Below, piece after piece: positions 1 to 22,651 of a stretch of DNA of 45,514 bases. The notes below the pieces were generated by a model that ran no database searches, was not told where the DNA came from, and saw only the letters and a list, made by a program, of their open reading frames with translations. This DNA comes from Minisyncoccota bacterium (GTDB taxonomy: Bacteria > Patescibacteriota > Minisyncoccia > Phycocordibacterales > UBA9973). The DNA lies in contig JAYTQE010000033.1 in NCBI GenBank assembly GCA_043746875.1, positions 1 through 45,514 on the forward strand. Direction: 5' to 3'. The translations under genes and the position numbers were made by a program. Numbering within the stretch: the stretch's first letter is position 1; every line of letters starts with the position of its first letter.

Positions 1-834
1 CCAGAATCTTCTGGAAAAACAACCCTTGCTCTACACGTAGTGTCTGAAGCTCAAAAACTTGGAGGTATTTGTGCTTATATAGACGCCGAACATGCAATGG
101 ATCCAGAATATGCAAAAAATATTGGCGTAAAAATACAAGAACTATTGATATCTCAACCTGATACAGGAGAACAGGGCCTTGAGATATGTGAATCCCTTGT
201 TAGGAGTGGGAAAATAGACGTCATTGTTATAGATTCTGTTGCAGCTCTTACTCCAAAAGATGAAATTGAAGGAGATATGGGTCAACAACATATGGGCAAA
301 CAAGCTCGATTGATGTCTCAAGCACTTCGCAAATTAACAGCTATTGTTCACAAATCTAAGACAATAGTAATTTTTATAAATCAGATTCGTATGCAGATTG
401 GTGTTATGTTTGGTAATCCAGAAACAACACCAGGAGGAAAAGCTTTGAAGTTTTATACTTCTATACGTTTAGATATTCGTCGTATTGCTCAAATAAAAAA
501 AGGAGAAGAAGTTGTTGGATCTCGAACCCGTGTAAAAGTAGTAAAAAACAAAGTTGCATCCCCTTTCAAACAAACGGAGTTTGATATTATATATGGTGAA
601 GGAATATCACTTGAAGGAGAATTACTTGCTCTTGGAGAAAAATTAAGTGTCATCACAAAAAGTGGTACTTCTTATTCTTATTCTCCTGAAGGTAAAGATG
701 AGATTAAACTTGGCCGAGGATATGATGCTAGTCGTATATTTATGAGAGAAAATACAAAAATTCGTGACCAAATAATGAAAGAAGTTCGCAAGAAAATGAA
801 GGAAGTCGTAATGGAGAGTTCAAGCGAAGAGTAA
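1..834 (+). CDS. recA: Recombinase RecA (5' end lies outside window)
   Basis: Frame 1 is open from nt 1 ([12 protein letters not shown], Walker A) and runs into the 40..834 ORF. RecA core motifs [17 protein letters not shown] and GGKALKFY are present. Confidence 0.95.
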
Positions 835-18405: not shown

Positions 18406-19776
18406 TTATTCACAGTTTAATTCTACCACATCACCTTCTTCTGGAGCTTTTGCATCAACATCTAAATAATCATGAAGCCTTTGTGATAAAAAAAGTGCAC
18501 TTTTTGGTTCTCCCATTACTACAAAAACTTTTTTTATAGTTTCTGCTACATCACCAACAAAGTCTATTAAATGATCAGAATCTTTGTGTCCAGAATATCC
18601 ATCAATAACAACAATTTTTGCTTTCACTGGAACATTTGTATTATTAATTCTAACTTCTTTTGCTCCTTCTTGAATTATTCTACCTAGTGTACCTATAGAC
18701 TGATAACCTGTTAATAATAATGTACTTTTTGGATCAGGTAGGTAGTTAAATTCATGATGAAGTATTCTTCCTCCATTTGACATACCTGATCCTGCAATAA
18801 TTATCTTTGGGTTAATTGTGTGTAAAATATCTTTTGATTCTTCTGTTAAAAGAGTTGACTTTAATCCTGGAAAATTAAAAATATCGTTGCCATTAGAAAC
18901 TTGCTTACGTGCAAAATCATTAAAATATTGAGATGATTTTTGATATATTTTTGTAAGCCTTATACCTAAAGGAGAATCGAAATAAATAGGAACATTTGGT
19001 ATCCTTTTATTCTCAATTAATTGATCTATTTCAAATAATAATTCTTGAGATCTTTCAAGAGAAAAAGTTGGAATAATAAGGGTTCCATTGTTTTTGTAAT
19101 TATCATTTATAACCTCTTCAAGTTTAACTCTCCTTTGAGGTCTACCTATGTGATTTCTATCTCCGTAAACACTTTCCATAATCATATAGTCAACATTTTT
19201 TAATGTTTCAGTATCACGTAATAAAGGTGAAGGAGAATTACCTAAATCTCCAGTGAATACAATTTTTTTATTATTATAAATAATTTCAAGCATTCCAGAT
19301 CCTAATATATGCCCAGCATCTCTATATCTAAATATAAATGGGCCCATAGCTAAATCTTGATGATAATCAATAACTTTCCAACTCTTAAAAACTTTATCTA
19401 AAATTTCTGGTGAATATATATCTTTCAAAGATTCATTTTCTCCATGAGCAAGTATATTTGCAGTATCTTCCAACATTAATTGAGTTATTTCTTTTGTTGG
19501 AATTGTAGAGTATATTTCCCCTTCAAAACCATCAAAAAATAATTTTGGGATACGACCAATATGATCAATGTGCGCATGTGTAATAAATAGTACATCGACA
19601 GAGCTTGGATCGTATATGAATGGTAACCAATTTTTTTCTTCAGTTATTTTATTTCCCTGAGTTAAACCACAATCAATCAAAAAACTTTTTCCTTCTCCTT
19701 CTAATAAAAAATTAGCACCAGTAACAGATCCTGTTCCTCCTGCAAAAGTAAGTTTAAGTATTTTTTTTGAGTTCAT
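18406..19776 (-). CDS. Metallo-beta-lactamase fold beta-CASP ribonuclease (CPSF/RNase J-like)
   Basis: FLIDCG, THAHIDHIG (HxHxDH), DAGHILGS, FTGDLG, ESVYG and YSGHKD motifs in beta-CASP order. Confidence 0.85.
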   Translation of the reverse strand: MNSKKILKLTFAGGTGSVTGANFLLEGEGKSFLIDCGLTQGNKITEEKNWLPFIYDPSSVDVLFITHAHIDHIGRIPKLFFDGFEGEIYSTIPTKEITQLMLEDTANILAHGENESLKDIYSPEILDKVFKSWKVIDYHQDLAMGPFIFRYRDAGHILGSGMLEIIYNNKKIVFTGDLGNSPSPLLRDTETLKNVDYMIMESVYGDRNHIGRPQRRVKLEEVINDNYKNNGTLIIPTFSLERSQELLFEIDQLIENKRIPNVPIYFDSPLGIRLTKIYQKSSQYFNDFARKQVSNGNDIFNFPGLKSTLLTEESKDILHTINPKIIIAGSGMSNGGRILHHEFNYLPDPKSTLLLTGYQSIGTLGRIIQEGAKEVRINNTNVPVKAKIVVIDGYSGHKDSDHLIDFVGDVAETIKKVFVVMGEPKSALFLSQRLHDYLDVDAKAPEEGDVVELNCE

Positions 19777-20173
19777 GATTGTTATTGTATCTCTTATTCA
19801 TCGAAATAACAAAAAATGATCCAGCAATTCCCCCTAAACAATCAAAAAATAAATCACCTATTGAATCTGGAATATCTGCCAAGTGTACATTTTTAACAAA
19901 TTCTTGAATTATGTATTCGTAATACTCCCAAAACAAACCCACAATAAATGAGGATAAGACTAATATTATAAATATTTGTTTTGAGTTTTGATCTAATAAT
20001 TTATTTAAAAAAAATGAAGCAACAATAAGCACTATAAATACCCCACCCAGAAAGTGCATAAATTTATCAAATCCAAATATTGATGTATACCAATAAAATT
20101 TATTAGCCAAAATATTTACTATAAAAATAAATACTCCCAAATAACATGCATTCTTAATTAATTTTTGGTACAT
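19754..20173 (-). CDS. Small polytopic membrane protein, VanZ-like
   Basis: 139 aa with 4 predicted TM segments. FDKFMHFLGG and DxxxDxLGGxxG resemble VanZ-family motifs. Overlaps the next gene by 23 nt. Confidence 0.45.
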   Translation of the reverse strand: MYQKLIKNACYLGVFIFIVNILANKFYWYTSIFGFDKFMHFLGGVFIVLIVASFFLNKLLDQNSKQIFIILVLSSFIVGLFWEYYEYIIQEFVKNVHLADIPDSIGDLFFDCLGGIAGSFFVISMNKRYNNNHELKKNT

Positions 20174-20210
20174 ATTTTCATATTATGACATAAAATATTT
20201 CAATACAATA

Positions 20211-20242
20211 GAAAAACCCTTACTAAAAAGTAAAGGTTTTTC
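20211..20242 (-). terminator. Intrinsic terminator following the structured RNA
   Basis: A 12-bp stem. The single irregular pair is G.U on the minus-strand RNA but C.A on the plus strand. Followed by UUUUUC on the minus strand. Confidence 0.7.
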
Positions 20243-20385
20243 TTACGGCTATTTAATAACTATTACCGTAGCACTCAGGCTAAGTGGGTACCTGGATAAG
20301 AATGATGCAATTAAAACTACTTCAAAATTATCACAACAGCTCCCATGTAAAATGTGTTCTCGGTAATAATTGTAAATAGCCGTAA
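20243..20385 (-). ncRNA. Unclassified structured RNA (6S-like architecture, or a leader/riboswitch of the downstream operon)
   Basis: A ~25-bp closing helix (20243..20268 with 20361..20385) where the only C.A on the plus strand becomes G.U on the minus strand. Then a large internal loop and an irregular apical helix. It has its own promoter and terminator. Confidence 0.5.
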
Positions 20386-20389
20386 ATTA

Positions 20390-20418
20390 ATTATAGACTT
20401 AAGAAAAATATTTTTCAA
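20390..20418 (-). promoter_or_regulatory. Near-consensus sigma70 promoter of the structured RNA
   Basis: TTGAAA (20418..20413), a 17-nt spacer, then TATAAT (20395..20390). The predicted TSS falls on the first nucleotides of the closing helix (~20383). Confidence 0.55.
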
Positions 20419-20453
20419 TATGGACAGTAAAGAAATATAATGTCGAACAAATA

Positions 20454-20930
20454 TTACATCAAATCATCTGAAAAAATAAACTGTGTGTCAACTTTATCAT
20501 AGTCAACGATTTCAGTTTCTTCAAAAAATCTTTTTATTTCAGTTTCAGCATTTTCTTTTGAATCAGAGGCATGTACTACATTTGATTGCATCGAAAGAGC
20601 AAGGTCCCCTCTTATTGTACCTGCACTAGCTTCATAAGATTTGGTAATCCCAACTATCAATCTAATACTATCTACAGCCCTAAGACCAGCAACAGCCATA
20701 ATGACAACAGGAGCAGACTTCATAAACTTTTTTATTCTTGGAAAAAATGGTTTGTCAGCTATATGATTATAATGATCCTCTAGAAGAGCATCATTTAAAT
20801 ACATCATTTTCATACCAATTATTTTTAATCCCTTTCTTTCAAATCTTGTTATTATTTCACCTACCAAACTTCTTTGTATTGCGTCTGGTTTAATTATAAT
20901 AAGTGATCGCTCTTCATTTTCATGTATCAT
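20454..20930 (-). CDS. ndk: Nucleoside diphosphate kinase
   Basis: ERSLIIIKPDAIQRSLVGEIITRFERKGLKI and NVVHASDS (active-site His). Confidence 0.93.
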   Translation of the reverse strand: MIHENEERSLIIIKPDAIQRSLVGEIITRFERKGLKIIGMKMMYLNDALLEDHYNHIADKPFFPRIKKFMKSAPVVIMAVAGLRAVDSIRLIVGITKSYEASAGTIRGDLALSMQSNVVHASDSKENAETEIKRFFEETEIVDYDKVDTQFIFSDDLM

Positions 20931-20968
20931 ATGGTTTTATAATACTTGAAAAATATTACTTAGACAAA

Positions 20969-22651
20969 TTACATCTTCTCTGGAGTGGAAATACCTATGA
21001 TTTTAAGACCATTATTAATAGTTTGTTTTACAGATTCAACTATAGCTAGTCTATAGGTTGTTGCCTCTTCATTTTCATCTATAATTTTTCCCTGGCCGTA
21101 CCAAGTATTGAAGTACTGTGCTAAATCTACAAGATAAACCAAAACATGATGTGGTGCCCATTCATTTATCGAGCGAGAAACAACCTCTGGAAATCGTACG
21201 ATAATTTTCTCCAATGTTTCTGTTCCAGTGGTTGGATTTGATAAATCAGGATTTATATTTTCATTTAAACCTTTTGTAAGTAATGATCCTGCTCTAACTG
21301 TAACGTACTGCAAGTATGGACCACTATCTCCTTCAAACGATAAAGATGTTTCTGGGTCAAAGTTTATATCTTTGCCAGCCATAGCACGAAGCACACTGAA
21401 CTTAATTGCTGATATTGCAATATTTTCAACTTCCAAAATTCCAAGATTAGAATTCTTTTCTTTGATATCACCTACGACAGTATCGAGCACATCTTCAGCA
21501 AGAGGTACACCTCCGAGACGTGATGACATTTTCTGACCCTTAAATGACATACGTCCATGAGTTCGATGAATACTTCTCTCTTGCCAATCTTTGTTTATAT
21601 AACTGACAGCATCTAGAACTATTTGAAAATGAGGGATCTGGTGATTGTCTGTTATAAATATTGATTTGTCAGGATTATAGCGTTCAAACTTCATAGACAT
21701 AAGTCCAACATCTTTGGCTTCATAAGTTGGATTACCTTGGCTATTGATAAATACCGCTGTATTTATATCCTTGCGAGATTCCTCTGGTATGTAAACTATT
21801 GCACCCTCACTTTCGGTGAAAACTTTTGAGGTAAACTTTTTCACTATTTCCTTACCAATTTCCCCTGCTTCGCTTTCGTATATATAAGAATCAAAATGTG
21901 AACCAAGTCTTGTTGTGATATTTTCAAAATATTCCATATTCAAATCTTTGCATTTTTTGAAAATTTTAAATTCTGAAGAATTAATACCAGCATAAAGATT
22001 ATCAGCAATTTCTTTGACTCTTGCATGTATGGATTCGTCTTCTTCGTATCTTTTAGTACCCTCAACATAAGATTCTCCCAATATGGATACATCTGTCGGT
22101 TCAAAATCTTCACCATATTTATCAAGTACTACAAATATAGCTTTGGCGGTACCGAGAGATATGTCTGATGGAAATGACATAGTAGTAACTTCAGCACCTG
22201 AAGCACGCGCAAGACCAACAATTGCCTCTCCAATAGTATTGTTCATCAAGTGACCTATATGAAATGGCTTAAAAAGATTTGGGCTTGAATGTTCTACTAA
22301 TATCTTCTGACCTTTCAAATCATTTACATGCCCCCACTTATCACCTAACTTTTTTGCATCTTTCAATTGCTCAATAAAAATACTTCTATCGAGTGTGAAG
22401 TTTATAAATCCAGGACCTGCTATTTTAATTTCATTTATTCCTGAAATATTTTTATGTTTCAATATTTTTACAAATTGGCCTGCTAAGACTATTGGATTTT
22501 GACCTAATTTTTTACCAACAATAAGTGCTATATTTGTCGCATAGTCTCCATGACCGAGATCTTTTGGATGCTCAAGTGTGAAATCAACCTCAGGTAATTC
22601 TAACTCTGCTATAACTTTTTTGATCGCTCCTCCTATTAGGATTTCATACAT
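20969..22651 (-). CDS. argS: Arginyl-tRNA synthetase
   Basis: HSSPNLFKPFHIGH (HIGH), N-terminal Arg_tRNA_synt_N-like domain, DALR-type C-terminus ending in M. Confidence 0.93.
   Translation of the reverse strand: MYEILIGGAIKKVIAELELPEVDFTLEHPKDLGHGDYATNIALIVGKKLGQNPIVLAGQFVKILKHKNISGINEIKIAGPGFINFTLDRSIFIEQLKDAKKLGDKWGHVNDLKGQKILVEHSSPNLFKPFHIGHLMNNTIGEAIVGLARASGAEVTTMSFPSDISLGTAKAIFVVLDKYGEDFEPTDVSILGESYVEGTKRYEEDESIHARVKEIADNLYAGINSSEFKIFKKCKDLNMEYFENITTRLGSHFDSYIYESEAGEIGKEIVKKFTSKVFTESEGAIVYIPEESRKDINTAVFINSQGNPTYEAKDVGLMSMKFERYNPDKSIFITDNHQIPHFQIVLDAVSYINKDWQERSIHRTHGRMSFKGQKMSSRLGGVPLAEDVLDTVVGDIKEKNSNLGILEVENIAISAIKFSVLRAMAGKDINFDPETSLSFEGDSGPYLQYVTVRAGSLLTKGLNENINPDLSNPTTGTETLEKIIVRFPEVVSRSINEWAPHHVLVYLVDLAQYFNTWYGQGKIIDENEEATTYRLAIVESVKQTINNGLKIIGISTPEKM

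Follow-up and report, generated by a model that had tools for sequence, protein, structure and literature searches.

6S RNA is a decoy that holds bacterial RNA polymerase, and its established cycle is known from Escherichia coli, whose 6S RNA is encoded by ssrS, and from Bacillus subtilis (PMC8876501; PMC3299989). The RNAs of these two species differ on the 3′ side of the central bubble. In free E. coli 6S RNA this strand is unpaired, and it folds into a 9-bp hairpin only once the product RNA (pRNA) has been synthesized (PMC8876501). B. subtilis 6S-1 RNA instead has a small hairpin pre-formed at this place (PMC8876501), and its pRNA is 5′-GUUCGGUCAAAACU (PMC3923129; PMC12005410). Truncated 6S-1 RNAs, reduced to the bubble and a pair of short arms, can still go through the whole 6S cycle in vitro (PMC8876501). 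Here we describe an RNA gene on the minus strand of the window, by which we mean the whole 45,514-nt stretch analyzed (contig JAYTQE010000033.1), from a Candidatus Nomurabacteria/Paceibacteria bacterium (Patescibacteria; candidate phyla radiation, CPR). Nucleotides 20384-20242 most probably constitute its 6S RNA gene (ssrS) in a compact, diverged form, a reading to which we assign a probability of roughly 85%. An earlier note on this DNA had proposed a self-contained minus-strand transcription unit, and its promoter, 143-nt RNA and terminator are all present at the coordinates listed in the table below.

The RNA is broadly conserved. BLASTN searches find it once in the 495-kb genome and match it partially in 12 genus genomes. 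We then relied on three covariance models: R1, built from the genus alignment and searched in the genus; R2, built from 14 sequences of other families, with none from this genus, and searched in the order; and R3, built from 41 sequences of the order and searched across the phylum. R1 finds the RNA in 49 of 51 genus genomes (36/36 of those of high quality), with exactly one copy in each. R2 has matches in 244 of 301 order genomes, representing 159 of 191 genera, and these are nearly always single; it scores the window RNA at 89.3 bits (E 1e-18), which is the only copy in the genome. R3 extends the matches to 108 of the 401 genomes sampled across Patescibacteria. A 20-base pattern scan of contigs with a 31-length gap placed about 25 of its 58 matches in unrelated taxa, near the approximately 34 expected by chance.

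Comparative data also establish the structure. In the 41-sequence alignment (A3), which has five helices, 88.7% of the cells are paired, versus 36-49% for slid partners. Compensatory two-sided changes are present in 37 of the 41 pairs, and none of 500 shuffles reaches the observed values. RNAalifold, given 13 sequences, yields 48 pairs, and compensatory changes are seen in 22 of these. The conservation in relatives and the covariation on which the earlier note had made its proposal depend are therefore both found: this is a single-copy RNA, nearly universal in its order, in which every helix is supported by covariation.

The connection to 6S RNA was made by comparing matches of these models with those of the Rfam 6S family, RF00013. 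On order-level loci RF00013 scores 20.9-23.4 bits. When searched order-wide (E <= 1), it has matches in 17 genomes, and in 15 of these the match lies on the R2/R3 match with the same strand and ends; the other two include one 43-nt noise match. The chance of one such coincidence is approximately 1e-4 per genome. Across the phylum (E <= 0.01), RF00013 gives 39 matches, of which eight are above the cut-off (8/401 genomes), and 22 of the 39 coincide with R3. Four of the coinciding matches exceed the 46.4-bit cut-off (G486 at 73.2, G398 at 58.4, G530 at 48.9 and G455 at 46.8 bits) and 18 are sub-threshold; a further eight loci score 27-42.5 bits with RF00013. Thus, RNAs that Rfam accepts as 6S are retrieved by a model built from the window's order alone, and this forms the chain to 6S. 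The Rfam scan suggested by the earlier note gave a mixed outcome. When all 4227 families were run on the window and 46 homologous loci, no family rose above its own cut-off on the RNA and none matched the window's copy, although weak 6S matches fell on the RNA of relatives. Indeed, 6S is the sole family whose weak matches span the whole RNA, on the right strand and in several genomes. The other weak matches are to a few microRNA and snoRNA models, on part of the apical arm of locus L063 only.

Sequence motifs point in the same direction. The RF00013 consensus reads ...CuGAgCCgA-aaauuuuuauaaua-GGGagccc...gggcaCCCACCUgg-aAcag-CaGG..., and the family described here has the matching motif CUAGAuuAA-(AU-rich, 16 nt)-GGGAGC...GCACCCACCUAG-loop-CUAGG. 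In cmscan alignments of the relatives, CUAGAuuAA, the 16-nt AU-rich strand and GGGAGC fall on CuGAgCCgA-aaauuuuuauaaua-GGGagc, and GCACCCACCUAG-loop-CUAGG falls on gcaCCCACCUgg-aAcag-CaGG. Even the A/A mismatch in the GGG-A-GC/GC-A-CCC helix is common to the family and RF00013. The resulting 6S signature, GGG-A-GC...GC-A-CCC-A-CCUGG-loop-CNAGG beside a 16-nt open 5′ bubble, appears in the window as GGGAGC...GGUACCCACUUAGC, and in A3 the GG, CCCAC and hairpin elements are invariant or near-invariant. Judged by sequence and consensus structure, the RNA proves homologous to the 6S RNAs of Rfam and does not merely resemble them. The 6S architecture of closing stem, bubble and apical arm that the earlier note recognized is upheld by these motifs and by the chain of models, and its label of 'unknown class' can be withdrawn, given the signature, the coinciding weak matches and the model-to-model links. 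This is no new RNA class but a compact, diverged member of the widespread 6S family, of which a few Patescibacteria representatives already pass Rfam.

Features of the 6S RNA gene and its surroundings. Positions are those of the window unless a locus is named; in RNA numbering, nt 1 is window position 20384.
Feature	Position	Strand	Remarks
6S RNA (ssrS-like) core, 143 nt (probable)	20242..20384	-	R1 122.9, R2 89.3, R3 97.1 bits
P1 closing stem, 5′ strand ('downstream duplex' of 6S)	20361..20384	-	P1a nt 1-11, A12 bulge, P1b nt 13-24
P1 closing stem, 3′ strand	20244..20268	-	fold and comparative structure
P1a, outer closing stem	nt 1-11 with 131-141		
Small internal loop of P1	A12 / nt 128-130		
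P1b	nt 13-24 with 117-127		one G.U pair
J1/2, 5′ central-bubble strand AGAACACAUUUUACAU, 16 nt	nt 25-40, 20345..20360	-	unpaired in consensus
P2 apical arm ('upstream/-35-like')	nt 41-99, 20286..20344	-	starts GGG-A-GC, ends GGU-A-CCC
Joining nucleotide A100 and P3 hairpin CUUAGC-CUGAGU-GCUA	nt 100-116, 20269..20285	-	3′ bubble segment
-35 hexamer TTGAAA	20413..20418	-	6S RNA promoter; TTG here kept in genus relatives
-10 hexamer TATAAT	20390..20395	-	predicted start ~A20383, 7 nt downstream
Intrinsic terminator	20243-20210 (feature row 20205..20243)	-	15-bp stem, UUUU loop, U-rich tail
Operon promoter, extended -10 TGTCATAAT, and ATG 20173	20173..20190; box 20190-20182	-	outside the RNA
Tandem copies, L064	1202-1323 and 1501-1632	+	
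Tandem copies, L179	305-451 and 547-733	+	

The closing helix pairs nt 1-24 with 117-141 as 11 bp, a small internal loop and another 11-12 bp. P1 (helices 1 and 2) has two-sided changes in 22 of 23 pairs, with 86-96% of cells paired in A3. The 16-nt J1/2 strand that follows contains conserved UAGAAC/UAGAUY and aligns with the 16-nt 5′ bubble of RF00013. The apical helix P2 (helices 3 and 4) has the richest covariation of the RNA, with compensatory changes in 12 of 14 pairs; its GG/CC pairs are invariant and its distal part is variable. P3 is 92% paired in A3, with compensatory change in four of its six pairs and an invariant CCCAC. In relatives it is a covarying 4-6-bp hairpin (CGUGGU/ACCACG in L067, for example), and the window RNA has a weak UAGC/GCUA stem of 4 bp at this place. 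In 6S, the element that corresponds to P3 is CACCUgg..CaGG. Within the genus the RNA also has invariant termini, ACGGCUAUUU and AAAUAGCCGU.

These data confirm both the closing helix with its one G.U pair and the apical helix GGGA...UACCC (20344-20286) that had been drawn from the single sequence. Of the two unpaired stretches proposed in the same drawing, the 5′ one (20360-20345) is indeed unpaired, and the 3′ one, CUUAGCCUGAGUGCUA (20284-20269), is the covarying P3 hairpin. The RNA with its terminator has a minimum free energy of -66.4 kcal/mol, versus -32.8 +/- 3.7 for shuffled sequences (z = -9.0). Because the reverse strand also adopts a stable fold (z = -8.2), folding cannot settle the strand, and other evidence is needed. 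R1 scores the window at 122.9 bits on the minus strand versus 43.6 bits on the plus strand, as the earlier assignment to the minus strand would have it, and throughout the genus the scores are 84-152 bits on the RNA strand versus 30-60 bits on the opposite strand.

In most of the order, two pairing partners are available to the 3′ CUAGG, namely the 5′ strand of P3 and a CUAG beside P1. Each alternative is 92% pairable, and column 178 of the alignment covaries with both alternative partners. The test of two-partner pairing has little statistical power owing to sequence conservation, and the alternative CUAG/CUAGG pairing is not evident in the window's own sequence.

The 20384-20242 segment is an independent gene, composed of a sigma-70-type promoter, the 143-nt core and an intrinsic terminator. 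Read along the minus strand from 20600 to 20000, the order is the end of ndk (stop at 20454; the product belongs to Pfam NDK), the promoter, the RNA, the terminator, the operon promoter and the operon ATG. The TTGAAA-17-TATAAT promoter (20418-20390) matches the consensus at 11 of 12 positions and is the top promoter-like site within 19700-21000, and the terminator is the sole terminator-like site in the region by consensus scan; both signals had been pointed out previously. Moreover, their placement is conserved. In 34 of 40 order relatives the -10 box (TATAAT/TATACT/TACAAT) terminates exactly 5 nt ahead of the position where the model begins, and in 38 of 40 a hairpin with a U-run lies within 60 nt (<=60 nt) of the RNA 3′ end. 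In all 12 genus genomes matched, a -35 TTG and a -10 TATAAT/TATACT precede (U/C)ACGGCUAUUU...AAAUAGCCGUAAG, with a terminator after it. From these signals at fixed spacing, a primary transcript of about 175-180 nt is predicted.

Upstream of the -35 element (window 20419-20450, minus strand, and likewise L002-L013), the genus retains CTGTCTAT(A/C)TTG. In about half of the genus sequences, TCGACA(G/C) lies 14-15 nt further upstream and forms an inverted repeat with this motif. The repeat shows one compensatory change (GACAC...GTGTC in L005), and similar palindromes occur in L061 and L074, which belong to other families. A regulator of 6S transcription may use this palindrome as its operator.

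How does this RNA compare with the described types? With the B. subtilis 6S-1 and Aquifex aeolicus type it has in common the closing stem, the open AU-rich 16-nt 5′ bubble strand and the apical arm, and both are encoded by one housekeeping gene under a strong sigma-70-type promoter. The GGG-A-GC...GC-A-CCC-A-CCUGG motif is also that of the RF00013/6S-1 type, and as in 6S-1 the 3′ bubble hairpin is already formed. With its pre-formed P3 and open J1/2, the RNA is thus by analogy of the 6S-1/Aquifex type and not of the E. coli type. We infer that the conserved ...ACC(G/U)AGAAC at the border of stem and bubble resembles the 6S-1 template for its pRNA. Unlike the 6S-1 type, the window RNA is shorter, and it has a nearly perfect closing stem from which the distal bulged part is missing. 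No linker separates this stem from the 3′ hairpin, and the result is a three-way junction. At its 3′ end the RNA carries a fused intrinsic terminator, its score is under the Rfam cut-off, and no collapse helix is evident.

The E. coli RNA has the same order of elements as the window RNA, and its 3′ bubble sequence CACCU-UG...CAAGG corresponds to CACCUAG...CUAGG of the Paceibacteria RNA. The CUAG/CUAGG alternative, pairable in 92% of cells in most of the order, parallels the E. coli alternative between closing stem and release hairpin. The gene contexts are different: E. coli 6S is cut from a longer, ygfA-linked transcript, whereas the window gene lies after ndk and is equipped with a promoter and a terminator of its own.

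A third comparison is with 6S RNAs from other classes of Patescibacteria that reach or come near the Rfam cut-off (G486, 73 bits; G397, 60 bits; L109, 42.5 bits), for which R3 and RF00013 find the same coordinates. These are likewise compact (approximately 145-160 nt by RF00013) and have the same GGGAG...CACCCACCUGG core. They score 35-73 bits with RF00013 because they retain more of the canonical closing stem. Their neighbors are tRNA and RNase P RNA genes, rather than ndk and a beta-CASP RNase. In seven such loci (L095, L098-L101, L106 and L107), the 6S-like gene lies 0.1-1.5 kb from the gene for RNase P RNA (RF00010, 130-270 bits) and from tRNA genes, which suggests a stable-RNA gene cluster in those classes.

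If the window RNA acts as other 6S RNAs do, it would mimic an open promoter and occupy the active-site cleft of the housekeeping sigma-RNA polymerase holoenzyme. P1 would take the place of the downstream duplex, J1/2 that of the template strand, and P2 that of the upstream/-35 side. Polymerase would be sequestered in this way as growth slows. Upon a rise in nucleoside triphosphates, the 5′ bubble strand would be used as template from approximately nt 29-33 (...GAGAAC29ACAU33...) into P1b, giving a predicted pRNA 5′-GUUCUCGGUAAUAAU..., or one that starts a few nucleotides upstream; both its start and its sequence are predicted solely from how the RNA aligns with the start sites in E. coli and B. 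subtilis. Synthesis of this pRNA would unzip the closing stem, and the enzyme would be freed. The 143-nt form is plausible for such a cycle, since truncated 6S-1 RNAs carry it out in vitro. A primary sigma-70 homologue is encoded at C32:1811-2443 (52% identity by tblastn with a C-terminal segment of E. coli RpoD as query), and the same search gave one further weak region-4-like match only (C45:6032-6232). The cell may therefore have very few sigma factors.

Several observations weigh against the assignment to 6S. RF00013 has no match on the window at its gathering threshold (46.4 bits), nor on 20100-20520 at E <= 10; it matches nothing in the whole genome at E <= 10, nor anything on 12 genus relatives at E <= 1. 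Membership in 6S therefore rests on transitive homology. The core is also short, at 143 nt in the window and 125-163 nt in the order, compared with approximately 180-200 nt for classical 6S RNAs. On its 3′ side, the 'bubble' consists of a covarying hairpin that stacks straight on the closing stem; in formal terms, the RNA has a three-way junction in place of an open bubble. When the pRNA-hybrid region was masked and 12 family members were refolded, P3 became slightly longer, and no conserved 'central bubble collapse helix' emerged. Finally, the tight order-wide synteny of ndk, the RNA, a membrane protein and the beta-CASP RNase could signify a lineage-specific role connected with these genes.

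A bolder proposal can also be made. The RNA of Paceibacteria would be a natural minimized 6S, with its three-way junction closed, its 3′ hairpin fixed and its 'downstream' stem a perfect 22 bp, that is kept beside a CPSF-like beta-CASP gene order-wide and works unlike the textbook 6S. It could serve as a general polymerase-hibernation factor in essentially one-sigma cells, with turnover or release tied to the nuclease, or it could function with no polymerase binding. We view this proposal as speculative and unlikely.

A different explanation is that the RNA, whether derived from 6S or merely convergent in shape, is a Patescibacteria-specific housekeeping RNA and not a polymerase decoy, for example a partner of the beta-CASP nuclease or Ndk, a substrate mimic or a conformational-switch RNA. 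The order-wide linkage of ndk, the RNA and the beta-CASP RNase is its main hint, but this synteny is gone in other classes, where tRNA and RNase P RNA genes are the neighbors. The closed three-way junction and the invariant ACGGCUAUUU and AAAUAGCCGU suggest a sequence-specific protein contact, and the failure of the window sequence with RF00013 also counts in its favor; set against these are the 6S signature, the coinciding RF00013 matches and the chain to 6S RNAs above the cut-off. Likewise, the two possible partners of the 3′ CUAGG, each pairable in 92%, with one column covarying with both, could indicate a switch, yet a choice between release hairpin and closing stem is a known 6S feature (PMC8876501). 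There is also no other candidate in the genome for the 6S role (RF00013, E <= 10). We consider this explanation a slim prospect.

Could the RNA instead be a cis-acting leader, a riboswitch or attenuator that steers read-through into the four-gene operon? Only 38-70 nt separate it from the operon, which follows on the same strand, this neighborhood persists order-wide, and a three-way junction with conserved joining strands looks aptamer-like. However, the 22-bp closing stem is followed by a separate, very stable terminator, with no antiterminator alternative visible, and the distance from promoter to RNA is constant, as would suit a gene product. An extended -10 promoter belonging to the operon itself lies between the terminator and the ATG, and the operon mRNA is predicted to be near-leaderless. 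Furthermore, the first downstream gene is lost in eight of 40 loci, and unrelated genes neighbor the RNA in other classes. The earlier note had held this reading to be equally open with 6S; given the terminator in 38 of 40 relatives, the operon's own -10 promoter and the different neighbors elsewhere, it has become very improbable.

Nor is the RNA likely to be the missing signal recognition particle (SRP, 4.5S) RNA of the lineage in a very diverged form, an idea in which we place hardly any credence. The idea arises because the small and large SRP RNA models (RF00169 and RF01854) match nothing at E <= 0.01 in this genome or 30 relatives, leaving a universal RNA unaccounted for, whereas most control genomes are positive; RF00169 finds nothing in the window's own genome even at E <= 1, and an ad hoc scan of the genome for the SRP domain-IV hairpin motif yields only coding-like matches. 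The RNA described here has neither a GNRA tetraloop nor the domain-IV AGCA/GGAA motif, and its apical part, which would be the conserved core of an SRP RNA, is its most variable in length and sequence. No SRP family matches the 46 homologous loci at E up to 1-5, while 6S matches recur. The SRP RNA of this lineage is either very diverged, missed by the first-look filter of the search, or absent.

A miniature inverted-repeat element (MITE) or other DNA palindrome without an RNA gene is scarcely credible: 24-nt near-perfect terminal inverted repeats do surround approximately 95 nt, but the element is single-copy in the genome, occupies the same syntenic site in hundreds of species, has strand-asymmetric model scores, G.U pairs on the minus strand only and compensatory changes in its internal helices, and keeps a promoter and terminator at fixed spacing. 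The terminal inverted repeats also brought a retron-type noncoding RNA to mind. This candidate was rejected, as there is no reverse transcriptase nearby, the neighbors being ndk, a small membrane protein and the beta-CASP RNase.

The assignment to 6S matters in part because current annotation overlooks such genes. At the curated cut-off, Rfam/Infernal reports 6S RNA in none of 301 order genomes and in eight of 401 Patescibacteria, whereas the models built here find one copy in approximately 80% of the order and, under strict filters, in a quarter of the phylum. Adding these sequences to the RF00013 seed would mend this systematic annotation gap. In the literature searched, we found no relevant paper on 6S RNA in Patescibacteria/CPR, Parcubacteria or Saccharibacteria. 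A global RNA polymerase regulator retained in 0.5-Mb genomes bears on how episymbionts endure starvation and resume growth, and structural studies gain minimal 6S scaffolds in these naturally occurring forms of 125-145 nt.

The genes downstream of the RNA encode, by Pfam names, a membrane protein, a beta-CASP RNase, a SLOG protein and a P-type ATPase. A TGnNATAAT/TGnNATACT box stands approximately 7-9 nt before the operon ATG, both here, where the distance is about 8 nt, and in genus relatives (flanks of L002-L013), and the operon mRNA is probably leaderless or nearly so. The order ndk, RNA, (small membrane protein), beta-CASP RNase is present in 35 of 40 loci across the order, and the first gene after the RNA is dropped in eight of the 40. 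For the 'beta-CASP RNase' (18406-19776, minus strand), the best NCBIfam match is Cas14, the MBL-beta-CASP protein of type VII CRISPR, at 388 bits, which is below the cut-off; archaeal aCPSF1 scores 288 bits and the RNase J family model 18 bits. As far as these profiles tell, the nuclease is CPSF/aCPSF1-like and differs from a typical RNase J. Both maturation and degradation of 6S RNAs are carried out by RNase J1 in B. subtilis (PMC10578484).

Tandem 6S-like copies, 100-180 nt apart, occur downstream of ndk in G081, G132 and about ten other order genomes. Such pairs recall 6S-1 and 6S-2 of Bacillus, and in G132 RF00013 favors the copy that the order-built model scores lower. Several metagenome-assembled genomes with the Paceibacteria-type RNA are titled 'uncultured Candidatus Saccharibacteria bacterium', including CAZSWF010000005.1 (G003:C5) from the window's genus; these titles are probably automatic mislabels.

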